Shown here: one piece after another, positions 3,237-64,000 of the stretch
How positions within the stretch are numbered: position 1 is the stretch's first letter
How the letters are laid out: every line of letters starts with the position of its first letter
NCBI GenBank assembly: GCA_030390025.1
Contig: CM059431.1
Span: 106,952,001-107,016,000 of the forward strand
Origin: Squalus acanthias
Taxonomy: Eukaryota
Reading direction: 5' to 3'
DNA length: 64,000 nucleotides
Notes under the pieces: model-generated
Databases searched by the model: none
What the model was told of the DNA's origin: nothing
The model's input: only the letters and a program-made list of their open reading frames with translations
Position numbers and translations under genes: made by a program

Positions 3237-4961
3237 GGCTGAGATTTTGCGTGGGGTTAGCGGGCGGGATCGGTGATGGGTCAGATGGGAACCTGCTGTC
3301 AACCCGCTGCAATGCACCTTTGCCAATGTTGGGTCTGTCAACGCTGAGCAGACCCAATTGGTAGTGGCGGGGGACCCAATTAAAATCATTAGCATCTACT
3401 TGACAGATGCCTAACAGGTTTTTTGAACTTAGCTGTTGACTTTAACTGCATGACCATGGGAACCAAACTGTTCGGGGACCACGGCTGTCAACCTGAGGCG
3501 GGAGTTCAGTGGCCATTGCTCCAGCTGATTACTTGGCAGCTGCAAGTGTACAGTTAAAGCTCCCACCAGGCAGAAGGTGTTTCTCAGTCCATTTCCAGCA
3601 CAGATTCTGCAGACTTTCCACTTTCCACTCTCCATCCACTCTTACCTCATTGGAAGAACTCTTTCACCATTGACAGATCATTTCTGTCATCTCTACTTCA
3701 CCTGCCATCTATTCCATCAACATGGGTGCCCTTTATACTGTCTCATCTTGGTCCTCAGAATCCCACCACAATCAACCCCAACACCAGCAGCACCAGGCAC
3801 ACCAGCAGTACCAACAACAACACCAATCTTCTCCGCAATCACCTGATACTGCACAGGACAGAAGGCATCAGCACCCGAACATATTGCTGCCCGGGAGGTC
3901 AGGGATGGCCTCATCATGGCTAGATTTACATAAAACTTTACGCTGTACATCCTGGCTGCCACATGATGCGCCAGGTTGGCACCACACCACACCAACACCA
4001 AAGAGCATCCCTACAATGACCTAGCCATTCCTTTCACACTCATCATCATTGCGGGGGGTACCGTTATGTGTCACCATTCACTGCAACTCACTAAGCCACT
4101 TCCAAAGGTGCACACAAATCTGTCCAATACCGGAAAGTGTTGAAAATAAAGATTTCAATGTTTGACAGCACATCAACAGAAACTTTACATGAACATTGGA
4201 TAAAACACACAAGTGGCTACCCTTGTGTGTTGTTAGTTGATATGATTGCACTAGGATGAGGGTGAGTGTGAGTGGTGGCTAGTGAGATGGGAATGTGATA
4301 ATGTAGATAGAGAGAGATGGGTGGAGGTGCAAGGTAAGTTGGTGCAAGTAACGATGTGCAGGAGTAGGGTAGGGAAGGCAGAGTGATGGGGATGTGATGA
4401 GAGGGACAGCAGGATGAGGTTGAGTGTGGTTTTGTACTAACATTTCGTGATCTAATGAGATCATTGAAATGTTTGTGCCACTCCATCCAGGTCCTCCTGA
4501 CCACAGCCCTGCTTGTGCCCTCCTGTGTAATGTGCAACCAGGCTGTGTTGATCACCTGGGGCGGTCTCTTCCGCCCATGGTAACGGAAGAGGACCTCCCT
4601 GCGTGCTGTGACTCCCTCCATAAGCATATGGAGGGAGTCATGGAAGAACGTTGATGCAGCCCTCTCCCTCTGTGCAGTCATTGTCGGTGTTTGCAGCACG
4701 TCAATGCTGCAGAATACTGACAGCAGAAACGTCAAAAGTAAGGCGGCCATGGTCCCTTTAAGGAAAGCAGCTGGTGACGTGTCATGAATGACGTCACCAG
4801 ACCCGCTTCCTCTAATTGGGTCGGGAAACGCGCTGGGCAGGCTTAACGAGCCCTATCAACGTAAATTCATTTTAGGCAGTAGGATGGAGCCAGCAGCGGG
4901 GCCACGACCCCACACCAACATTGCCCACCCCGGACCCGCTGGGGTGAGCAAAATCCCAGCC
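3237..4961. mobile_element. Non-autonomous PIF/Harbinger deletion derivative, copy 1
   Basis: TIRs GGCTGAGATTTTGC / GCAAAATCCCAGCC. Transposase N-terminus on + (MGALYTVSSWSSES, 3722) resembles the 27469 transposase start. Myb-like exon on -. Collinear with copies at 7022 and 62784. Confidence 0.85.
4441..4681 (-). pseudogene. Harbinger Myb/SANT-like DNA-binding domain, exon 1
   Basis: MTAQRERAASTF...REVLF...AW..ITQE...RRTWMEWHKHFNDL followed by a GTTAGT donor-like site. Aligns by eye with the 46938 protein. Confidence 0.75.
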
Positions 4962-7021: not shown

Positions 7022-8769
7022 GGCCAAGATTTTCTGAAGGGGGGTCAGCGGGCGCGATCGGTGGCGGGTCGGGTGGGAAAGTGTTTTTTTTCCCCAGTGT
7101 GTCGGGAACCCACTGTGAACCCACTGCCATGCGCCTTTCCCCGGTGTCGGGTCTGTCAGTGCTGAGCAGACCCGACACGCAGCGGTGGGGGACCCAATTC
7201 AGGTAATTATGGGTCTGTTTAGAGATCATTAAGAATATATTTGAGCTCACCTTTTGATTTTATGTGCTCGACCACGGGGTCCTCGCTGCTCGGGGACCAC
7301 ATCTGTTGAGCTGAGGTGAGAGTTCAGTGGCCATCGAATCAGCTGTTGAGTTGACAGCTTCAAATGTAAAATAAAAGCTCCTACCTTGCAGAGATAGCTT
7401 CCCTCAGCCACAAGCTCTTCCTCACTGCATTTCCACAACAGATTCACCAGGTTACAAGTTTTCACATAAGTCTCCATCCAGTCTCACCTCATTACCTCTC
7501 TCACCATTGACAGATCGCTTCTGTCATCTCTACTTCACCTGCCATCTATTCCATCAGCATGGGTGCCCTTGAAATATCTCACTTTGGTCCTCAGAATCCC
7601 ACCACGATCAGCCCCAACACCAGCAGCACCAGGCACACCAGCAGCACCAACAACAACACCAACCCTCTCCGCAATCAACTGATGCTGCACAGGACACAAG
7701 GCATCAGCACCCGACCACATTGCTGCCCGGGATGCCAGGGATGGCCTCACCATGGCCAGATTTACTTCACTTGACGCTGTACACCCTGGCTGCCACATGA
7801 TGTGCCAGGTTGGCACCACCCCACACCATCACCATAAAGCATCCCTACAATGCCCAAGCCATTCCTTTCACACTCATCACCATTGCGGGGATACCGTTAT
7901 GTCTCACCATTCACTGCAACTCACTCAGCCACTTCCAAAGGTGTACACAAATCTGTTCAAGAACGCAAAGAGTTGAAAATAAAGGTTTCAATGTTTGACA
8001 GCACATTAACAGAAACTTTACATGAGCATTGCATAAAACACCCAAGTGCCTACCCTTGTGTGTTAGTTGGTATGATTGCACTAGGATGAGGGTGAGTGTG
8101 AGGGGTGGCTTGTGAGATGAGTATGTGATAATGTAGATAGAGAGGGATGGGTGGAGGTGCAAGGTAAGTTGGTGTGAGTACGGATGTGCAGGAGTAGGGT
8201 AGGGAAGGCAGAGTGATGGGGATGTGATGAGAGGCACAGCAGGATGAGGTTGAGTGTGGTTTTGTACTAAGGTTTCGTGATCTACTGAGATCATTGAAAC
8301 GTGTGTGGCACTGCACCCAGGTTTTCCTGCCCACATCTCTGCTTGTGTCCTCCTCTGCAACGTGCAACCAGGCTGTGTTGATCTTCTGGGGAGGTTTCTT
8401 CCGCCCATGGGAAGGGAAGAGGACTTCCCTGCGTGCTGTGACTCACTCCATAAGCATATGGAGGGAGTCATGGGAGAGCCTGGGTGCAGCCCTGCACCTC
8501 TGTGCAGTGCTTGTCAGTGTAGAACACTGACAGCACAAATGTCAAATTCAATTTGGCCATGGTCCCTTTAAGGAAACCGGCTGATGACGCGTCATCAAAT
8601 GACATCACCAGACCCGCTTCCTCTAATTGGCCGAGAAACGTGCTGGGCAGGTTTAACAAGCCCCATCAGGGGAAAATAATTTCTGACAGCGGGATGGAGC
8701 CAGCAGCAGGGTCGGGACCCGCCACCGACGACCCGCCACTGACCTGCAGAGGTGAGCAAATTCGCGGCC
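7022..8769. mobile_element. Non-autonomous PIF/Harbinger deletion derivative, copy 2
   Basis: TIRs GGCCAAGATTTT / AAAATTCGCGGCC, flanks AGA/AGG, collinear with 3237-4961. Confidence 0.85.
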
Positions 8770-11354: not shown

Positions 11355-11465
11355 TAACATTACAACAATGACTACACTCCAAAAGTACTTCATTGGTTGT
11401 AAAGCGCTTTGAGACGTCCAGTGGTCGTGAAAGGCGTTATATAAATGCAAGTCTTTCTTCTTTCT
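11355..11465 (+). mobile_element. DeuSINE-like SINE 3' tail
   Basis: CATTACAACAATGACTACACT...GTAAAGCGCTTTG...ATATAAATGCAAGTCTTTCTT, the reverse complement of the 23232 SINE tail. Confidence 0.7.
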
Positions 11466-12789
11466 TTCTATAATAGGGGATTTTTCAGTAGCATTGTGTG
11501 TGAGTTGAAGTCTTGAGAAGATTGGCTGACTCAGAGCTGTTTGTAGTCTGAAGTGTTAAATTGTTATTTTCAACATTGATTTGATATTTTTCTCCCCTAT
11601 TTTTTCCCTGTCTAGATTACAAAATTCTCCCTTTCTTCTTTTCCCTGCTCCCATTTTCTATAAATTTCCGATTTCAATGTCCTCCCATTTCTACCTATAG
11701 TGTTGGCTTGGTGCGAGGTAGCATAGAACAGGCGTTCCAAATTTCAAGCCCTGCACCAGGTTGTAAACTTTAACCTAAAAATACTGAAAATGAAACACTG
11801 ATAAAGAGATTGCGAAAATGATGAATAGTGTTTAAAAGGTTGCAAACTTCGCTCCAAGTATTAAAACTAATTAAAAACAGAAAATGAATATTACACGTCT
11901 TGAAGTGAAAGTAAGCAAACCTCATGCAGTTTCCATGGTTATAATGGAGCGATAACCAATGTGGATTTCTCACGTCCTTATCCAAAAGATGATCAATCTA
12001 TTTGAGATGCAGGGCAATCTATAGACAGGATTAATAAAAATCAAATAGACTTCATTCTGGTAATTAGAAAAATCAAGACTTGCATTTATATAGCGCCTTT
12101 CACAAATCAGAGCATCCCAAAGCGCTTTACAGCCAATCAAGTACTCTTGAAGTGTAGTCACTGTTGTAACGTAGGAAAACAATGTAGAAACCCAAGTGTT
12201 ACAAATTGTTGCATTTTGCTAATGCTGACGTAGGAACTGACCACCAACTAGTGCCTTAGACGATGTTTGCTAAATACTTTCACAATGCCAAATAAAACCA
12301 GCACTTCTTTAAATGTTGAAAAATTATGAAACGTTGCTGATAAAATACAATTTGATGAAAGAAACCAACTGTTGCAAGTTTCATTCTGTCTTGGATATTC
12401 TTTTGGGCACAGCAGTGTTGATCAATCCTGTAAGTGGTCCAAGCATCTTATGTTCAGGGGTGCGCCCATACTGCCCAACGACTAATTCCACAATAATGTT
12501 ACCCAGGGGTGTAACAATAAGGAACCCTTATGATCTGAACTGGAGAGCTTGTCTTCCATGTATACCCAGCTGTGAGCTTCTCCAATCTTTCAATAGGAAG
12601 ACTGAGAAATGCTTCAATCAGAAAGGCATGATGCAAATGATTGAACTCCTTATTTTACAGACAGCAAGTGAATACACGGAGTAATGTTTAAAGCACATTC
12701 CATTTCTGTCACTCGCACACATACACACACATCTCTTTTCTAAAAAAAGTAGAAAAAATAACTAATACACCCTCTCAGACTGAACCAAA

Positions 12790-13144: not shown

Positions 13145-13262
13145 AAAGAGTAGAGGTTAAGGCTAACTGGTCAGACTGAAAAAAAGGTGGGAAGTGGTGT
13201 TCCACAGGGATCGGTGCTGGGACCACTGTTGTTCACTATTTACATAAACAATTTGGATGATT
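13145..13262 (+). mobile_element. CR1 RT fragment
   Basis: Encodes SGVPQGSVLGPLLFTIYINNLD. Confidence 0.75.
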
Positions 13263-13391
13263 AGGAGGTGAGGAGGAAACTTTTGAGTCTTTCTAGATGG
13301 AGGAACTAAAATGGGCTACAAAGCACTGCTCATTTGAAAATAATGAGAAGTCGCATAACACCAGGTTATAGTTCAACAGATTTATTTAAAA

Positions 13392-13429
13392 TTACAAGCT
13401 TTCGGAGCTGTTGCCCCTTCGTCAGGTAA
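13392..13429 (-). ncRNA. Minimal type I hammerhead ribozyme motif
   Basis: Minus strand UUAC-CUGACGA-A-GGGGC-AACA-GCUCC-GAAA-GCU-U-GUAA: intact core, stem I UUAC/GUAA, 5-bp stem II, palindromic AGCU stem III. Confidence 0.75.
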
Positions 13430-13828
13430 AGGTGCAATGAAGGAATCTACAATATTACACAGTATATAAACACAGAAACTGCAGAGATACAATCTTTCAG
13501 GGAGGGATTACTTCAAAGACACACCAGAGCACAGCCAAGACAATGAGATGGATCACAGGGGGTCCAACGTGTCAAATCCTGCTGTCTGCAGTTGAGCTTT
13601 TAACTTTTTTTTTGGTTTGGTTTTTTTTGTGTTTTTTTTTTAAACTGGAAAGACAGACAACGATGTCGAGTCACGTTCTGTAGCATGACATGAACCATCT
13701 CATTGTCCATCTCATTTTCTTGGCTGTGCTCTGGTGTGTCTTTGAAGTAATGCTTCCCTGAAAGATTGTATCTCTGCAGTTTCTGTGTTTATATACTGTG
13801 TAATATTGTAGATTCCTTCATTGCACCT

Positions 13829-13866
13829 TTACCTGATGAAGGGGCGACAGCTCCGAAAGCTTGTAA
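13829..13866 (+). ncRNA. Minimal type I hammerhead ribozyme motif
   Basis: UUAC-CUGAUGA-A-GGGGC-GACA-GCUCC-GAAA-GCU-U-GUAA, same fold as the left arm. Confidence 0.75.
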
Positions 13867-14235
13867 TTTTAAATAAATCTGTTGGACTATAACCTGGTGT
13901 TGTGCGACTTCTCATTTTTGTCCACCCCAGTCCAACACCGGCATCTCCGCATCATGACCACATTTGAAAATAGCTTGTGATCTTGTGAGAAGCTGGACGA
14001 ATACTAAAAAATGGATAACAGACAGAGAACAGGTGGCGTGAGCATCCTGAATAATAGCTAAAGATGACATACCTTGTCCTTAAATTTTTCAACCTGTGAC
14101 AATAGGATACTGAGGAGCCTGGACAGACACTACTCTTGAAAATTTTAAGGATTGAGATTAGAGTTGCCATCCCTGAATTGGAAAATGATAAAAAGTGCCT
14201 GAAATAGATGATGTTTAGGCAGAAAAGATGAAGGT

Positions 14236-15174: not shown

Positions 15175-16679
15175 GGGCCTTAGAAATTCCAGTACGCTGG
15201 AAACCTGCTGGGAGCAGCGCCGGCCAAGGCTAACGGTCGCCCACCGAGAGAGCGCCGGCAGCACCGCTATTTTGGTGCTGCCTGCTAATTAACATCAGCG
15301 GAGCGTTGATTTTTGTGGTGCAGCGCGCTCTTTCCAGCGCTAAGCTCAGCCAGAGGCCGAAGGTCGCATCCGTGTCCCGCTTGCAGCAAAGGAGAACGGG
15401 GAAGAAAGGAGCGAACCTGTAGGCCAGGTACGGAACAGTTGGCATATTTGCTGCAAAAATATTACCTGCCACCCAATTATTAACTATGTTTGTTGATTTT
15501 TTAATAGTTCATGGAATGAATGCATCTGCGTTCTCTGTGACACTAATCTTTCCCCAATGGTTACTCTTGAAAGTGTTCAAATGTGCAGTAATCCTGCCAG
15601 CTTTTAGTGGGCCTTGCATACTCGACACAAAATAATTATTTGATAAATTATGGATTTTTGAATAAATTAATTATAATTCCTTAAAATCTTAAGCAGTTGA
15701 GTCCAGATTTGCTAGGGGGTGACGTTCTGGTGACCCTATTGTAAAGATAAAAGAGATCTTATCAGAGAAGACCGTCAAACGTTGCAATGGAGTTGTAGCT
15801 TATCTGATGCTCTTCAGCAATTTGTTTTTTTTATTTGCCTGGAATCCGCCGAGGGATTTGCAGTTTTGTGCAGGTGTTCAGTTCTGAACTAAAAGCTTGT
15901 ACCACAAGGTTTCACCCATTGATTTACTGATCCACAAACACTGTAGGCCTCCTGGAAAGCCGCCAGAAAATGCAATAACTCCCCCCACCACCACCCACCC
16001 CCCACGCCCCCCACCCCACCCCACACCCACGCCCACCCACCAGCACCCACCCCACGCCCCCGACCACCACCAGCCCCCCCACGCCCCAGACCACCACCCC
16101 ACCCATGCCCCCCACCATCCCCCCCCACACACCTGACCACCACCCCCTCCATGCCCACACCATCCCCCCCACAATCCCCACCACCACCAGCCCCCCCCCA
16201 CGCCGCCCCCCCACGCCCCCCACCACCACCCATGCCACTGATGTGCAAAAAATGAAAGTATAAAAGAAGAACCTTTGCAAAGGAGGCGTTTGAAGTTCCA
16301 GCATCCGTCTGAGCTGTTTTCCACTTGCCAGCCTCCATCTTGTCTACAATCTGCCAAGTCCTGCCAGTCAGTTGAAGCATCCTCAAGGCCGTTAACGCTG
16401 CTGAAGTGCTTTTAATGGCTGCACGCAAGGGCGTGCTTCAGTGGGGGTGACAAGAGGAGCGGCGATATCTAAAATGGATCAGCAGGCGTCAACTCGGCCT
16501 TGCGTGTCGATTGACATCACGCTCCGACTAATTACAATAGTTTCAACGAGCGCAGGCAACGGCAGTGCTGCCGACCTGACGAAAATGGCGGCCGCCGGCA
16601 ACGGTCGAAAATGGTCGCCACATTTTTCCCCGAATCGGGCGGTTAATGGTTGGCGCTAAACCCTCTGAATTTTTAGGCC
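15175..16679. mobile_element. Decayed Harbinger-type element
   Basis: TIRs GGCCTTAGAAATTC / GAATTTTTAGGCC with ATA flanks and GC-rich ends. Faint transposase-like remnants on + at ~15750-15980. Confidence 0.65.
15981..16232. repeat. C-rich degenerate tandem repeat (CCACCACC/CCCCACGCCCC units)
   Basis: About 250 bp of almost pure C/A, seen directly. Confidence 0.9.
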
Positions 16680-23231: not shown

Positions 23232-23662
23232 AAAAGAAAGACTTGCATTTATATAGCGCCTTTCACGACCACCGGATGTCCCAAAGCACTTTACAGCCAA
23301 TGAAGTACTTTTTTTGAAGTGTAGTCACTGTTGTAATGTCGGACACGCGGCAGCCAATTTGCGCACAGCAAGGTCCCACAAACAGTAATGTGATAATGAC
23401 CAGATAATCTGCTTTAGTGATGTTGGTTGAGGGATAAATGTTGGCCAGGACACCGGGGATAACTACCCTGCTCTTCTTCGAAATAGTAGCATGGGATCTT
23501 TTACATCCACCTGAGAGAGCAGACGGGGCCTCGGTTTAACGTCTCATCTGAAAAACGGCACCTCCGACAGTGCAGCATTCCCTCGGTACTGCACTGGAGT
23601 GTCAGGCTAGATTTTTGTGCTCAAGACCTGGAGTGACACATGAACCCACAACCTTCTGACCA
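23232..23662 (-). mobile_element. DeuSINE-like (SacSINE1-type) SINE, near full length
   Basis: tRNA-like head with a B-box-like GGTTCATGTG on minus, central GTACCGAGGGAATGCTGCACTGTCGGAGGTGCCG domain and an L2-like tail. Confidence 0.75.
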
Positions 23663-25906: not shown

Positions 25907-27469
25907 TTATTGAAATCTGCCATTGATAAGGGTATCCCTGGCGTGACGGGCTGCAAAGTGCTCGCGTACTGGTCGCAATGGGACCGCCGGCTCGTCCAGG
26001 TGTTCCTCATCCTCGTAACCAACCTCATGGAGAGCCTCCTCATCCTCATCCTCCTCGTCCTCCGATGAGGCTCCTGCGCTCAGCGGTGTCTTCCTCATCC
26101 AGTACTAATCCTCACTGCTGTGCTATGTTTTGCAGGGCTCAGCAGATGACGACTATTCGTGAAACGCTAGCTGGTGCGCACTGAAGGGCTCATCCAGATC
26201 TATCGAGGCATCTGAAGCGCACTTTGAGCAAGCCTATTGTCTGCTCGATGACACTTCTCGTGGAGATGGGGTTTTGATTATAACATCCCTCAGGCTCATC
26301 TGTTGGCCTCTTCAAAGGTGTCATGAGCCACGTCTTCAGGGGAGAGCCCTTGTCTCCAAGCAGTGTACCATCTACAAGATGCACTGCAGCAACTCGCCAA
26401 GGCTTCTTTGGCAGCACCTCCCAAACCTTCAACCTCTTCCACCTAGAAGGACAAGGGCAGCAGGCACATGGGAACACCACCACCTCCAAGTTCCCCTCCA
26501 AGTCACACACCATCCTGACTTAGAAGTATATCGCCGATCCTTCATCGTCGCTGGGTCAAAATCCTGGAACTCCCTCCCTAACAGCATTGTGGGAGTAGCT
26601 TCACCACATGGACTGCAGCGGTTCAAGAAGGCGGCTCACCACCACCTTCTCAAGGGCAATTAGGGATGGGCAATAAATGCTGGCCTTGCCTGGGACACCC
26701 ACATCCCATAAACAAATTTTTTAAAAAGCCAGCCGCCAAGACTATTTGGTGGTGCGAAGAGCTGAGGGACAGTGGAATGGCGCAGGATGTATGATTCATG
26801 GCAGCTGCCAGGGAACTTGGCGCACACATGGATGATAATCTTCCTATGGTTGCAGACCAGCTGAACGTTGAGGGAGTGAAAGCCCTTGCGGTTAACAAAT
26901 ACTACTGGGTTGTGATGGGGTGCCGTGATGGCCACATGTGCGCAGTCGATGACTCCTTGCACCCGTGGGAAGACAGCTAGAGCGGCAAAGCCAAGCGCAC
27001 GTTCATTGACAGTGGCTTCATCAGTTGCAAAATGAATATAATTTGTGGACTTGTTAAAGAGGGCATTGGTGTGTGGCTGACTGCGAGATGCCTGGAAGGA
27101 GCCTGAGGTGAAGAAGTTGAGGGCAAGGGTGAATTTGACAACCACTGGTGAAGAATGTCCACCCCTTCCTCTGGGCTGCAGGTCTTGCTCCAGTAAAGCG
27201 CAAATGTCTGCGATGACCTGGCGCTGCTGCTCCGTCATGTTGAGGAAGCTCATCCTCTGCCGGTATACCCTGTGTTGGGAGTATGGCCTCCGGCGCGGTG
27301 CAACCCTGTGCTGATGCCCTCTGCCCTGTGCTGTATCAGGTGGTTGAGGAGAAGGTCGGCGCCCTTGTTGTTGTTGCTGCTGCTGCTGGTGTGGATGGTT
27401 CTGCTGCTGCTGCGGCTGATCGTCATCAGATTCGGAGGACCAAGGTGACAGAGCATAAATCGTGCCCAT
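25907..27469 (-). pseudogene. Harbinger DDE transposase (HARBI1-like), disrupted
   Basis: [52 protein letters not shown]. Internal deletions, stops and a LINE insertion. Confidence 0.9.
26362..26725 (+). mobile_element. CR1-group LINE 3' fragment inserted in the transposase
   Basis: CTIYKMHCSNSPRLL...SWNSLP...FKKAAHHHLL, same family as 41680-44412. Splits the GGWL/LGDKG motif. Confidence 0.85.
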
Positions 27470-28404
27470 TCTGATGATTCATATGGCAGGTGAAGTTCAG
27501 ATGACAGAACCAATCTATCAAAGGTGAGATATGAGGTTGCAAGGAGGTGACAGTGAATAGAGAGTTTACTGCAAACACTTCCCAAATGCATAAAGCTTAA
27601 AAATCTGTTCCAAATACCTGAAGTTTCTGAGATTGGAAAGTGACCAGCTGTAAAATGGCAGGTTTTAAACCACTTTTGCAGCTGTCACCTATTGAAAGAA
27701 ATGGAGAGTTGTTCAGAACCCAACATACTTACCTGGCCTGATCCCCGAGTGACGGGAACCTCGTGGAAAACTTGGGAAAATGTTTTGTACCTGGTAAAAT
27801 GGTGATTAAATTGCTTTAAACACCCTCTCAATGAGCGCAATTGAATGACCCGCCACTTAGTGCCGTGTCTGCAGAGCGCAGGCAGAGCCGACGTTAGGGA
27901 AACTCACAAGGAGGCGGGTTTAGAGCGGGATACCGCCCCGCTGTCAATCATTTGGATTTTGACAGCGGACCCGCCTCCGAACCCGCCCTCTGAGCGCCGG
28001 CAAAATTCAGCCCCATGAGTGGAACTTTTTATCCAGTTCCCACACCAGTCTTGACTCTCTGAGTTGAGATTGCCAGTCAGTGATGAATTAGCATCTGGTT
28101 TGCGGAGTGAGCCCATGGTCACGACCAGCTAGAGGAAGTCGATTGGTTTGTGCGATTAAAAGTATTTATCTATCTTTGTCACCTTGGCTCCTACCACAGA
28201 TTGCCACCAAAAGAGTAAGAGCAAGCAGAATGGAATAAATCAACTCTCTGTATATTCTATTTTTGTTAATCTGAAAGGAATCACTATTTAAAATGGTCTG
28301 AATCGGACAACTTCATTATTTTTGAATTGACCTAAAGTGACTCAATTTGAGTTACCTCAGGTCTGGAATCAATACTGAGAAGTTCAAGCCCAACAACAAA
28401 AATA

Positions 28405-45320: not shown

Positions 45321-46937
45321 GTTAAAGCATTGATTTTACTTGCATTGCATCTTTTAATGACAAAATAATTTATTAAATCAACAATAATTAAATCAGTGAC
45401 TGCTGATGGGCTAACCAAAAATGAAATACATGTTTTCCTTCTTTCAATATGATTTTATGTTATTAGCATGAGATAGGCCTTGAGTTTAATCGCGAGTGAA
45501 CATTTTTACACACTGATCTGCTGTAATCTCAATATGTAAAAATATCTTCTGACGAGGTACCAATTGGTGCTCATTAACTTCAGCACAATTACTCTTTGGC
45601 CTTCTGATAAATGTTTTGCTTTCTGTTAGTGAGTGCTGAAAAACACAGTGGAATGCTTCATCACTTTTGTGCATCGTTTTCAAAACAGGTGCAATGTTTG
45701 TCTGATTTTTTTTTAATCTCATACTTAAAACAGTTCTCATTATCCTACCAGCTGCAAGACACATGGGTATAGTAGATGAAAATGTTACAATTAGCCATTC
45801 TGTGTTGGGATTATAGGAACAGGAGTTGGCCATTCTGCTCCTCGAGCCTGTTCCACCATTCATTTCGATAGTGGCTGATCTGTAACTCAACTCCGTTTAG
45901 CCACCTTTGATCCATATCCCTTGCTAAATTTACCGAATAAAAATCGGTCAATCTCAGTCTTGAAAATTTCAAATCTCCTAGCATCCACGATAATTTGGGA
46001 GAAGAGATTCCAGATTTGCTCTATCTTTTATGTGGAAAAAGTGCTTCCTGATTTCACTCCTAAATGGCCTTACTCTAATTTTAAGTTTATGCCCTTTGTT
46101 CGGGATTCTTCAACAGAGGAAATAGTTTCTCTGTGTCTACTTATTGAATCATTTTATCATTATAAACACTTCAATTAAATTATCCCTCAACCTTCTAAAC
46201 ACAAGGGAATACAAGCTTATGCAACCTGTCTTCATAACTTAAGCCCTGGTATTATTCTGGTGAATCTGTGCTGGACCCCCTCCAAGGCCAATATATCCTT
46301 CCTGAGGTGCCCAATACTGAACGCAGTTACTCCAGATGGGGTCTGACTTGAGGGGGTCCAGGTACATAGATCATTAAAATATCATGAACAGGTACAGAAA
46401 ATAATCAAAAAGGCCGATGGAATGCTGGCCTTTATATCTGGAGGACTGGAATACAAGGGGGTAGAAGTTATGCTGCAGCTATACAAAACCCTGGTTAGAC
46501 CACACCTGGAGTACTGTGGCAGTTCTGGGCACCACACCGTAGGAAGGATATATTGGCCTTGGAGGGAGTGCAGCGTAGGTTTACCAGAATGATACCTTGG
46601 GGGAGAAATTCGATATCGCCTCGTTTGGGGCACTAAATTTTGAAATCGTGGAAAATTAGCGCCAGGCGCTAATGAGTCTGAGCTTCCCCTAAATTGGCTG
46701 TTAGCGCCCCTGGAAAGAGCTGGAGCACTCAATCAAGTGCTAATGATCTCAGTGGGGCGCTACAGGGGCGCTACCAGTAGAGCGATAATGAATTTCAGGT
46801 GCTATTCAATCGGGAATGATCCTTCACACTGGCTCCTTCCAGCTCTTAAAGGGGAGGCTGCATCATTGTGCAGCTCCTCATTATCAGCATTGCTGGCTGT
46901 GAAGACGACCTGCAACCAACTCAATCCCCTGATCGTG

Positions 46938-48131
46938 ATGGCTGCTCCCACTCCCAGGGAGAGAGCTCGTCATTTCACGGACGAGGCATTGGTCGCGGGA
47001 GTGGAGCGAAGGAGGGCAGTGCTGTTCCCGAACACTGGAAGGAGGCCATTGCCCCAGGTCTTCAGGGCAATGTGGAGGGAAGTGGCCCAGGAGGTCTCGG
47101 CCAGTAGTGTGGTCGTACGCAGCCTGACACAGTGCCGGGAGAAATTCAACGACCTCACTCGGGTGGTCAAGGTGAGTACATGCTTCAACAGGTCCTACAG
47201 ACCAGCATCTGAACCTCAAGGCCAGGGGAAAAGGGTAGCTCGGGAGCTAATTCCCCGGAGGGTGAGTTCGCACGCAACTTCTGCTGCACAGGACTCAGAT
47301 GACAACCTCGATGTGGAGGCATTCACAAGAAGGGTGATGGGCATGCACTGCGAGATGATAGGTGCAATGGCAAGGGTGCCCGAGAGCCTCTCGGCAATGG
47401 TAAGGAGTGTGGAGGAGTCCACCTCCAACATTGCACAGAGCTCTGTGCACACCATGGAGCCCATCATTTCCACTCTGCAGAGGATGGTGGACTCCCAGAG
47501 AAACCGTGCGGATCCAGACCTCATGACATGTGTCATGGGCGATGTGGAAGCTTCCATTGCAGCACAGGCGGAAGCGATGCAATGTCTTAGCGCTATAATG
47601 CAGGCAATGGTTGGTGGCATCGAGCCTCAGACTGCTCTCATGCAGTCTCAGCTTGATGCCACGCAAGCTCTGACTACTGTCATCGTCGCTGGGTCCACCA
47701 CAGTCCACCGGGGATCTCACGGTGTTGCAGCAGGCCACCAATCTCTACTCCAGCAGATTAGTAGGGATGCTGAGGTGCTGCCCTGGGGAAGTGGCAGTGG
47801 GTCAATGGAGCAGGAACCTGCTGTCCTCTCTCAGGATGACAGCATTCCTGATCCCACCACTGCCACTCAGCCATTGCACTTGTCGCTGCCTGTCATCCAG
47901 CCAGCCCAGACTGGCGCCGCCCAGCCTGAGGTGGTGCAGTCTACAGCCGGGCCTTCCAGGCCCAGAGCTGGTCGAGGGTGTCTTGCAAGGCCATCTGTAG
48001 TTTCTGGCACTGACACTCAGCAGCCTTCCACCCGCCCTGCTGCACCCACTGGGGAGACACTACGTAGGAGCAGTAGATTAAGGAAAGGCACTGTAAAGAA
48101 GGCAAGTAAAGGCTTGCACAGGAGTCATTAG
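46938..48131 (+). CDS. Harbinger Myb/SANT-like DNA-binding protein, 397 aa, open
   Basis: MAAPTPRERARHFTDEAL...RRAVLF...MWREVAQEV...RSLTQCREKFNDL, followed by a heptad-like middle and a Pro/basic tail. Confidence 0.75.
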   Translation: MAAPTPRERARHFTDEALVAGVERRRAVLFPNTGRRPLPQVFRAMWREVAQEVSASSVVVRSLTQCREKFNDLTRVVKVSTCFNRSYRPASEPQGQGKRVARELIPRRVSSHATSAAQDSDDNLDVEAFTRRVMGMHCEMIGAMARVPESLSAMVRSVEESTSNIAQSSVHTMEPIISTLQRMVDSQRNRADPDLMTCVMGDVEASIAAQAEAMQCLSAIMQAMVGGIEPQTALMQSQLDATQALTTVIVAGSTTVHRGSHGVAAGHQSLLQQISRDAEVLPWGSGSGSMEQEPAVLSQDDSIPDPTTATQPLHLSLPVIQPAQTGAAQPEVVQSTAGPSRPRAGRGCLARPSVVSGTDTQQPSTRPAAPTGETLRRSSRLRKGTVKKASKGLHRSH

Positions 48132-48296: not shown

Positions 48297-49481
48297 TCAT
48301 TGGAACCGAAGTCTGATGAGGCGGTCACGGACCACCCTTCCACAAGGCCGATTGAGTGGCGACCTCCTCCGTCGCTGATGTTCGTGCTCCTGTTCACCCC
48401 CCTCCTCCTCCTCCTCCTCCTCATCCTCATCCTCGTCCTCCTTGTCTCCCTCTTCCTGCTCCTGAGGTGGTCCTGCTATTCCTGGTGGCAATGGCTGCGC
48501 CCTCATGATGGCCAAGTTGTGCAGCATGCAGCAGACCACCGTGAAAAGGGACACCCGCTCAGCCGAGTACTGGAGGGCTCCTCCCGAGCGATCAAGGCAG
48601 CGGAACCATTGCTTGAACACTCCGATGGTCTGCTCAATGATGTTCCTGGTGGCAGCATGGCTCTCATTGTATGAGTGCTGCGCAGGAGTGTTGGGGTTGC
48701 CGAGGGGAGTCATGAGCCAGGTGGAGAGCGGATAGCCCTTGTCTCCCAGCAGCCAGCCACCAGCTTGGTGTGGTGGCTGGAACAGAGCTGGCAGGATGAA
48801 TGCATCGTGGCTGCTGCCAGGAAAGCGGGCATTGACGGTGAGGATTCGCCATGTGTGGTCGCACACCAACTGCACATTAAGTAAGTGGTAGCCTTTGTAG
48901 CTACGGAATACCTCAGGATTGTTACGGAGTGCTCACAGAACGACGTGGGTGCAGTCAATGGCGCCCTGCACCACGGGGAAGCCCGCTATCCTGGCAAAGC
49001 CACATGCACACTCGCGCTGCTTCTCTCTGGTCATCGGGAAGGAAATGTAGTCCCTTCTCCTTCTGTAGAGAGCATCTATGACTTCGCGGATGCAGCAATA
49101 GACGGCGAACTGCGAGATGTTCGCTATATCTCCTGTTGCACACTGGAAGGATCTGCAGGCGTAGAAATTGAGGGCGATGGTGACCTTGACTGCCACTGAG
49201 AGAGCCGTGGTGCTCCTGATGTGAGGCTCAAGGTGTGGCTGCAGGAGGTGGCAGAGTTCTGTGACCACGCCCTTGGTGAAGTGGAGCCTTCTAAAACACT
49301 GTTCCTCAGTGAAATTCATGTAGGAGAAATGTTGCCGGAATACCCTGGGTGGGTAAGGCCTCCTGTTGAGAGCCCTGTTGGCCCTCCTCCCTCTGGCCAC
49401 ATTTTGCAATCTCTCTCTCTGGCTCTGCTGCCTCCGACGTTGACGCTGGAGGGCCAGGTCCAGTGCCAGTACAGCCCCCAT
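48297..49481 (-). pseudogene. Harbinger DDE transposase (HARBI1-like) with one in-frame stop
   Basis: ORFs 48933-49508 and 48297-48875 share a frame and are separated by a single TGA at 48933-48935. GAIDCTH, FPGSSHD, LLGDKGY and IEQTIG are present. Confidence 0.9.
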
Positions 49482-51379: not shown

Positions 51380-51620
51380 CTGGGGAATTCTCCCCGGTAT
51401 CCTGGCTAATATTTATCCCTCAGCCAACGTCACCAAAACAAGATTATCTGACTCATTTATCTGATTGTCGTTTGTTGGACCCTGCTGATGTGCAAATTGG
51501 CAGCCGCGTTTCCTACATTACAACAGTGACTGCGCTTCAAAAAGTACTTCATTGGCTGTAAAGCGCTTTGGGACGTCCTGAGCTCTATGTAAGGCGTGAT
51601 ATAGATGCAAGTTCTTTCTT
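51380..51620 (+). mobile_element. DeuSINE-like SINE 3' half
   Basis: Reverse complement of 23232-23465. Confidence 0.75.
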
Positions 51621-54460: not shown

Positions 54461-55880
54461 ATAGAGTCATAACGGCACAGAAGGAGGCCATTCGGCCCAT
54501 CGAGTCTGTGCCGGCTCTCTGTAGAGCAATTCAGTCGGTCCCATTCCCTTGCTCTATCCCCTAGCCCTGCAACTTATTTCCCTCACGTGCCTATCCAGTC
54601 TCCCCTTGAAAACATTGAGTGTCTCCGCTTCCACCACTTCCGTCGGCAGCGAGTTCCATATCCTCACCTCTCGCTGAGTAAAAAAGTTTTTCCTCACATC
54701 CCCCCTGTATCTCTTGCCCAAAACCTTAAATCTGTGTCCCCTAGTCCTTGTACCATCAACTAGTGGGAACAGCCTTTCCCCGTCTAGCCTATCCAAACCC
54801 GTCATAATCTTGTACACCTCTATCAAATCACCCCTCAACCTCCTTTGCTCTAATGAAAACAAATCCAGCTTCTCCAACCTGTCCTTGTAGCCAAGATCCC
54901 CCATCCCCGGAACCATTCTGGCAAATCTCCTCTGCACCCTCTCAAGTGCCTTCACATCCTACCTAAAGTGTGGTGACCAGAACTGGACGCAATACTCCAG
55001 TTGTGGCCTAACCAGCGCTTTACAAAGGTTCAGCGTAACTTCTCTACTTTTGTACTCAATACCTCTATTTATGAAGCCCAAGATCCCATATGCATTGCTA
55101 ACCACACTCTCGCTATGTCCTGCCACTTTCAGGTACCTATGCACATTAACTTCCAGGTCCCTCTGTCCCTGCACACTCTTTAAAACTGTGCCATTAAGTG
55201 TATATTGCCTCTCCATGTTCCTTCAGCCAAAATGCATCACCTCACACTTCTCTGTATTAAATTCCATCTGCCACTTGTCTGCCCATTCTGCTAGCCTTTC
55301 TATGTCCTGTTGCAGTCGATTGGTATCATCCTCACTGTTTGCCACACCCCCAAGTTTGGTGTCATCGGCAAATTTAGAAATTCTACTCTGTATTCCAATA
55401 TCCAGGTCATTTATATCTATCAAAAAAAGCAGTGGCCCCAGCACTGACCCTTGGGGAACACCACTGTCTACCATCCTCCAGTCTGAAAAATAGCCATTTA
55501 CCACAACTCGCTGTTTTCTGTCCTTAAGCCAATTCCTTGTCCAAGCTGCCACTGACCCACCTATTCCATGAGCCTCAATTTTGTTAACCAGCCTTCTATG
55601 TGGTACTTTGTCAAACAACTTCCGAAAATCCATGTAAAAAACATCCATTGCATTCCCTTCATCAATCCTCTCTGTTACTTCATCAGAAATTTCAATTAGA
55701 TTAGTCAAACATGATCTGCCTTTTACAAATCCGTGTTAGCTCTCCTTAATTAGCTTAAACCGCTTCAAGTGCCCGTTACTTTTTCCTTGATTATTGTTTC
55801 TAAAACTTTACCCACCACTGATGTTAAACTGACTGGCCTGTAGTTACTAGGATTGTCCTTACACCCTTTCTTGAACAATG
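54461..55880 (-). mobile_element. CR1 LINE, ~1.4 kb of ORF2
   Basis: YMDFRKLFDKVPH, GVPQGSVLGP, KFADDTK, LVRPQLEYC, RRLRGDLIEVYK, with frameshifts. Confidence 0.95.
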
Positions 55881-62783: not shown

Positions 62784-64000
62784 GGCCGCAATTTTGCCAG
62801 CGCTCTGCGGACCCAATTGATGGTGGGTCAGCTGTGAAATTTAAAATGAACCCACTGTCAAAACGCGCACACCTGCATTTCCCGATGTCGGGTCTGCCAG
62901 CGCTGAGCAGACCCGACAGGCAGCGGCGGGGGACCCAATTTAAATCATTAGTGACTTGTTTACAGCCTCTTAACAGTGCTTTTTTCCCAGCTTTTTAACT
63001 TTCACAGGTCTCCCAGGGGTTTCCCGCTGTGCCTAGACCTCATCGGTGAAGCTGAGGCGGGAGGTCACTTGCCATTGAATCAGCTGATGAGTTGACAGCT
63101 TCAAATGTCAACTCAAAGCTCCCAGCTGATTCAGATAACTTCCCTTCAACATTAGCATCTCTAAACTGCATTTCCACCACAGATTCAGGATGCTGCAAGT
63201 CTTTACATAAGTCTCTATGCATTCTGACCTCATTACCTCTCCCACCATTGACAGATTGCTTCTGTCAACTCTACTTCACCTGCCTCTATTCCATCAGCAT
63301 GGGCGCATTTTATACTATCTCACTTTGGTCCTCAGAATCTGACCACGATCAGCCCCAACACCAGCAGCACCAGGCACACCAGTAGCACCAACAACAACAC
63401 CAGCCTTCTCCACAATCACCTGATGCTGCACAGGACACAGGGCATCAGCATTCGACTACATTACTGCCCGGGACACCAGGGTTCGCCTCACCATGGCCAG
63501 ATTTACTTCACTTGACGCTGTACACCCTGGCAGCCACATGATGCGCCAGGTTGCCACCACCCCATACCAACAACATAAAGCATCCCTACAATGCCCAAGC
63601 CATTCCTTTCACACTCATCACCATTGCAGGGGGTACCGCCGTTATGTCTCACCATTCATTGCAACTCACTAAGCCACTTCCAAAGGTTAACACAAATCTG
63701 TCCAAGAACGCAAAGTGTTGAAAATAAAGGTTTCAATGTTTGACAGCACATTAACAGAAACTTCACATGAACATTGGCTAAAATACACAAGTGCCTACCC
63801 TTGAGTGTTGTTAGTTGGTATGATTGGACTAGGATGAGGGTAAGTGTGAGGGGTGGCTATTGAGATGGGGAAGTGATAATGTAGATAGAGAGGGATGGGT
63901 GGAGGTGCAAGGTAAGTTGGTGTGAGTAAGAATGTGCAGGAGTAGGGTAGGGAAAGCAGAGTGATGGGGATGTGATGAGAGGCACAGCAGGATGAGGTTG
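62784..64000. mobile_element. Non-autonomous PIF/Harbinger deletion derivative, copy 3 (runs off the window)
   Basis: TIR GGCCGCAATTTTGC inserted in a SINE fragment, collinear with 7022-8250. Confidence 0.85.

Follow-up and report, generated by a model that had tools for sequence, protein, structure and literature searches.

Structure of the insertion

A 618-bp insertion lies within the window (the whole 64-kb stretch of DNA that was analysed). It consists of the 3′ ends of two copies of a Penelope-like element, both 5′-truncated (354 and 266 nt) and placed head to head. The longer copy occupies 13343-13696 on the minus strand, has no tail and comprises the last codons of an ORF, the 3′ non-coding part of the pseudo-LTR (pLTR) and a hammerhead motif. 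The shorter copy (13695-13960, plus strand) carries a tail. An inverted-repeat finder returned arms of 217 nt at 96% identity, a figure that overshoots by 7 nt, into target duplication and tail. Trimmed of the flanking duplication, the arms measure 210 bp (13343-13552 on the minus strand and 13706-13915 on the plus strand) with 203 Watson-Crick pairs and 7 differences, i.e. a divergence of 3.3% (95% CI 1.4-6.7%). The right arm also contains a TATA-like TATATA at 13790 and an AATAAA at 13872, both being pattern matches only.

The insertion is bounded by an exact 12-bp direct repeat (13331-13342 and 13961-13972, plus strand), which adjoins both of its ends and has a chance probability of approximately 6e-6. 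Ten of the 12 bases are A or T (83% A+T vs 55% for the window), as would be expected of a short target-site duplication (TSD) at an AT-rich target. A BLAST search with the empty site reconstructed in silico found no repeat spanning it, and the TSD therefore rests on the direct repeat itself. The two copies meet at a 2-nt microhomology, CC (13695-13696), where the inverted 5′-truncated copy adjoins the 5′ end of the other. The 5′ end of the right copy moreover contains a 12-nt tandem duplication on the plus strand (13695-13706 and 13707-13718, 11/12 identical). The tail is present on one side only, there being none on the left arm. It runs for 45 nt on the plus strand (13916-13960, 71% A+C over 13920-13960), set against a known range of approximately 30-40 bp for such one-sided tails, and its end overlaps by a few bases what are probably the first codons of the ORF.

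Coding content inside the insertion is limited to seven codons and a stop (13671-13694, minus strand), a probable assignment made from the translation. Family contigs, read by eye, keep this frame open for 30 more letters, and in their 30-letter loose ends open frames continue on both sides. These codons would presumably belong to the GIY-YIG end of the ORF. No reverse transcriptase (RT) or endonuclease domain was found in the 618-bp insertion, so that its membership of the Penelope-like elements rests on the ends. BLAST revealed neither a third copy nor a full copy of the element in the window.

A first-pass annotation, made from the letters of the sequence, had described a fold-back element with 210-bp inverted arms, and the arms with their 7 mismatches bear this out. 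That description overlooked the TSD, the one-sided 45-nt tail and the origin of the spacer. Its attribution of the arms to Penelope-like pLTRs is upheld, as is its reading of the inverted pLTR as a truncation product.

Paired hammerheads and RNA folding

Each arm carries one complete minimal hammerhead motif, at 13829-13866 on the plus strand (predicted cut after 13862, CUU) and at 13392-13429 on the minus strand (predicted cut after 13396), approximately 400 bp apart. Both positions had been given exactly by the first-pass annotation, and its CUU site near 13862 is likewise upheld; H17 lies at 13862 and 13396. Each motif has a 4-bp stem I, a CUGANGA core, an extra A, a 5-bp stem II, GAA, the palindrome AGCU and U at H17; a U at this position cleaves slower than C or A. 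The features of the minimal type are thus all present (CUGANGA / GAAA / UH boxes, extra base 9-10.1, G10.1-C11.1 and palindromic 15.2-16.2), and its earlier assignment to the minimal, dimer-type class stands. CUU also conforms to the NUH rule for the cleavage triplet (PMC6908138).

A motif scan of the 64-kb window recovered only these two hammerheads, and 40 Markov simulations yielded 0.025 motifs per window and none with a palindromic stem III. The search with hammerhead models that had been proposed as a check came back empty, Rfam returning no match at the gathering score and no hammerhead among 8 weak matches at E<=10. The hammerhead call is therefore based on the motif and stem pattern. 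Single-strand folds of the 51-nt motifs resembled those of shuffled sequences (z -0.94 and -0.70) and folding energy alone consequently does not set the motifs apart.

Dimer cleavage of Penelope-like element hammerheads has reportedly been seen by Lunse et al. In Cervera 2014 (PMC4209133) minimal hammerheads occur in pairs 100-700 bp apart on opposite strands, and an assayed motif of the minimal type was inactive as a monomer and weak as a dimer. The motifs described here share with those the core boxes, the extra base 9-10.1, G10.1-C11.1, the palindromic 15.2-16.2 and a 4-bp helix I. Unlike the Schistosoma families, in which helix II is 7-8 bp, helix II here is 5 bp and H17 is U.

Only two positions within the motif distinguish the arms, N7 (13837) and the first base of loop II (13846); both are CpG-type changes, just as had been noted beforehand. 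If seven changes fell at random, the 12 core bases would escape with P=0.66, and the 32 core and stem bases with P=0.31. Sparing is thus expected by chance, the earlier caution over selection was justified, and selection on the two cores at this locus was rejected. All five of the arm transitions give rise to G-U pairs in the plus-strand hairpin (P=0.06), a bias that weakens to P=0.22 once the spacer change at 13685 is included. It amounts to a weak hint of hairpin retention, which we count against neutrality and treat as chance. Polarised by the family majority, the same five transitions are C-to-T on the plus strand, which is likewise not significant. If a C-to-T bias were to hold over many such stubs, it could be a sign of hairpin retention or of single-strand deamination.

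The whole insertion is predicted to fold back into a hairpin with a minimum free energy (MFE) of -420.8 kcal/mol (z -35.7), an uninterrupted run of 163 bp and, on the plus strand, five G-U pairs. Because the arms point outward, transcription through the insertion yields the antisense arm ahead of the sense arm, whichever strand is read. In prefix folds, which are equilibrium folds and not a kinetic simulation, more than 120 long-range pairs are present before the first ribozyme base emerges. By the time the motif is complete, 38/38 of its bases on the plus strand and 36/38 on the minus strand are paired to the antisense arm. In secondary-structure models of the read-through RNA of either strand, the ensemble is favoured over the hammerhead fold by 58-67 kcal/mol. 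With the antisense arm absent, stems I and II with an open core come within 1.3-3.9 kcal/mol of the ensemble. The stem III duplex amounts to only -2.5 kcal/mol. Moreover, a read-through RNA holds a single sense motif, and the dimer needed by the minimal type therefore cannot form in cis. An internally started RNA would have a free motif but would lack a cis partner, and under these models the variable would be the start of transcription rather than the fold. An RNA switch calls for folds of similar energy, or for a kinetic window for the ribozyme, and the secondary-structure models offer neither.

The element family in public sequencing runs

At least half of the words of 13553-14230 were contained in 5 of the 24 sequencing runs listed, all of them probably DNA of one organism and coming from two studies. 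Four runs were compared with 13553-14230, one of which (X1) was read to approximately 55%, and the empty site was not seen in this comparison. The depth of the unique flank was 16.1 in X1 and 10.1 in X2. Summed depth on the arm and tail reached up to 6.6 million in X1 and 5.6 million in X2, which is 4e5-5.5e5 times the flank in the peak bin and 6e4-1.3e5 times in the hammerhead bin, ratios to be taken as orders of magnitude and not as copy numbers. The family is thus very abundant, at roughly 10^5 copies. Runs from eight other organisms contained small shares (0.04-0.25), and no match to a 21-nt tail motif turned up in either metagenome or viral contigs. In X6, a probable RNA run, 2146 contigs fell on the family and none on the flank 13990-14230, which reflects a lack of cover and is uninformative on transcription of the locus.

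Contigs also reveal where the sequence between the arms comes from. Family contigs extend upstream of 13707 into the left part of the spacer in reverse complement (13553-13582), and past 13696 into other family sequence. It follows that the minus-strand copy (13343-13696) is the long one. The part of the spacer at 13645-13696 is also found at family depth (13553-13646 was left out as repeat). The spacer is upstream family sequence belonging to the longer left copy. The 3′ ends of the family cluster at 13955-13963 before unrelated flanks (agreement 0.37-0.51), with for example 68 and 53 contigs in X1 among the loose ends listed. One contig from another organism (X18), read by eye, extends beyond the tail as an open frame, the ATG of which stands at the end of the tail.

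At the joint (13699), depth was 0 in X1 and 12.6 in X2, compared with the 16.1 and 10.1 of the flank. Cover in X2 came from a single contig (13654-13732) with 8 other letters and 4 gaps, which represents either a diverged allele or a separate insertion that broke at almost the same point. With the joint absent or at single-copy depth, the fold-back was not amplified as a unit. As regards presence of the insertion in a second individual, contigs leading from the tail to the flank were found in both X1 and X2, which come from two studies. They include no more than 25 and 20 letters of the tail, below the 31-letter threshold. X1 may be the source sample.

Both arms carry three letters that are in the minority within the family (13746, 13817 and 13824), from which it follows that both derive from one source element under either model of formation considered below. 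Variants present in the family at >=5% within the motif were confined to N7, loop II, H17 (U or C) and stem I, with zero in the core or stem II; they were scored on contigs at least 85% alike, which introduces a bias. This pattern would fit a ribozyme that was selected while the family was active.

Origin of the head-to-head copies

The layout described above has already been published for Penelope-like elements, and the locus is one more instance of it. In Arkhipova 2013 (PMC3846280), Pen2a_Av of Adineta vaga combines pLTRs of 218 bp with an inverted pLTR that is shorter, a tail of 31 bp and a TSD of 9 bp, and head-to-head is the most frequent arrangement. Craig et al. 2021 (PMC8557442) present an inverted pLTR with tail and TSD as typical of endonuclease-bearing (EN+) Penelope-like insertions. 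The insertion resembles Pen2a_Av and the EN+ scheme in its head-to-head inverted copy of approximately 200 bp, its tail at one end, its short TSD and the TATATA of its pLTR. It differs in having no ORF body, in that the inverted copy is the longer one and in the lack of a palindrome at the joint, whilst the TSD is 12 bp here vs 8-10 bp in the rotifer examples and the tail is 45 nt.

A further comparison is offered by PAc, a Poseidon element of Anolis carolinensis. According to Frangieh et al. 2024 (PMC11167929), the PAc protein cuts and extends both strands at AT-rich DNA, two internal RT start sites bound the tail and the protein is predicted to be a dimer. Shared with PAc are the AC-rich tail into the ORF start region, the AT-rich target and the presence of tailed and tail-less ends. 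In PAc the hammerhead contains the start of the ORF, and RT begins 111-118 nt within that ORF, unlike the present element, in which the probable start codon lies approximately 90 nt after the hammerhead, at the tail end. Non-LTR retrozymes (bioRxiv 10.64898/2026.07.22.740005) are similarly short, non-coding, hammerhead-bearing and pLTR-derived. They form head-to-tail tandem arrays that allow dimer cleavage, whereas the copies here are head to head and were not amplified as a unit. The window holds only two copies, inverted rather than head to tail, and a retrozyme was rejected as a candidate.

The locus is very probably the product of one insertion, old and neutral, of a Penelope-like retrotransposon with an endonuclease, of which two head-to-head 5′-truncated 3′ ends are left. 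The ribozyme pair is a known by-product of element insertion and not an RNA switch. As to how the ends arose, the nuclease of the element would have introduced a nick into each strand of an AT-rich site, at a spacing of 12 nt, and reverse transcription of element RNA of common origin would have been primed at each nick. One RT start would have been at the tail-end site and the other approximately 45 nt upstream, giving two short cDNAs, tailed and tail-less, that would have been joined at CC and then repaired. Since PAc cuts and extends both strands and has two RT starts, such double priming suggests itself as the simplest route, and we give this step, taken by itself, an even chance. The hammerheads would be passengers that owe their conservation to selection on the family during its active period. 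Here they would either lie silent, buried in the 210-bp hairpin of a read-through RNA, or remain lone monomers in an RNA started internally.

The same double priming may extend beyond this locus, in that head-to-head Penelope stubs might be the genomic record of two-ended target-primed reverse transcription, a proposal we make tentatively and rate at somewhat under even odds. An RT-endonuclease dimer would prime from both nicks of a staggered cut, one for each internal start site. If true, a single step of two-ended priming would account for inverted copies, a tail on one side only and a clean TSD. Among the points against the reading of the locus as a Penelope-like insertion is the tail, at 45 nt vs 30-40 nt in the papers. 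A literature search by title found nothing on Penelope twin priming with inversion; older subscription papers lay outside the search and the idea may be in print.

The principal competitor to double priming concerns this step only and leaves the identity of the insertion as it is. A single cDNA would have reached 13696, folded back through CC/GG at 13550-13551 and copied itself, with nuclease resolution trimming one of the tails. The scheme resembles self-priming as proposed in Arkhipova 2013 (PMC3846280), together with the formation of tails by resolution proposed in Craig et al. 2021 (PMC8557442). The 2-nt microhomology agrees with the fold-back register, and the minority letters common to both arms would be expected too, although they fit double priming equally. 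However, the left copy meets the TSD without a tail, so that a tail on the right only needs extra trimming, and in place of a palindrome at the joint there are approximately 140 nt of unpaired sequence. Two start sites moreover account for tailed and tail-less ends in vitro (PMC11167929), and we regard fold-back copying as possible though doubtful.

The other alternatives assign the locus a different nature. In one, the locus is transcribed into a long dsRNA hairpin that is edited or diced and silences the family, with the ribozymes uninvolved. Its attraction lies in the predicted stability and long uninterrupted run of the hairpin, and in the antisense small RNAs that rotifer Penelope families attract (PMC3846280). 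Yet the G-U bias is not significant, no host exon appeared in the 49 of 52 long ORFs that were scanned (short exons would escape) and every head-to-head stub would form such a hairpin, so the locus need not be special. We consider this quite unlikely. A literature search by title on Penelope inverted-repeat hairpins or dsRNA with hammerheads returned nothing beyond a plant review. The switch between self-cleavage and hairpin that the first-pass annotation had put forward is highly improbable. Both cores are intact and an internally started RNA could fold the motif at little cost, but on both strands the antisense arm comes first, the energy gap is wide, stem III is weak and there is no partner in cis. 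Furthermore, the minimal hammerhead that was tested gave no cleavage as a monomer and little as a dimer (PMC4209133), and the anole motif requires the protein of the element (PMC11167929). Long inverted termini and a target duplication would also be found in a non-autonomous, MITE-like fold-back family that amplifies as a unit. However, whilst both sides of the joint are at family depth, the joint itself is not, the termini are asymmetric because of the tail and the spacer is ordinary upstream family sequence. An amplified family of this kind was accordingly rejected, and we find it scarcely credible.

Read as a neutral Penelope-like insertion, the locus is of small importance, being one decaying stub among very many. 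It does provide a clean teaching example, in that two intact ribozymes on opposite strands require no selection, and a data point on how Penelope-like elements make inverted ends. The ends, joints and arm alleles of the approximately 10^5 copies in the genome could separate double priming from self-priming. Should many such stubs lie where transcription occurs, long dsRNA directed against the family would be readily supplied by them.

The surrounding window is rich in repeats. Among the 49 long ORFs scanned (3 of the 52 were excluded as low-complexity), 5 had Pfam matches, all to transposon domains. Two of these ORFs converge, with a Myb/SANT domain at 46644-48128 (plus strand) and DDE_Tnp_4 at 48300-48932 (minus strand), a layout which we take to be a Harbinger-type transposon. 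Further pieces lie at 4220-4852 (Myb) and 26663-27478 (DDE_Tnp_4). A repeat of 1.1-1.7 kb is present in three copies (3287-4961, 7104-8769 and 62848-64000) with 81-85% identity, the first of which overlaps the Myb ORF at 4220-4852. An older inverted pair (11357-11465 and 12066-12172, approximately 109 bp, 83%, approximately 600 bp apart) is the end of a short dispersed repeat that is also found at 23232-23343 and 51509-51620. Just left of the insertion, at 13190-13260, is a short decayed reverse-transcriptase fragment, presumably CR1-like, of which 36 bp match an RVT_1 ORF at 55226-55735. Lastly, a C-rich low-complexity tract of approximately 280 bp extends over 15968-16246.
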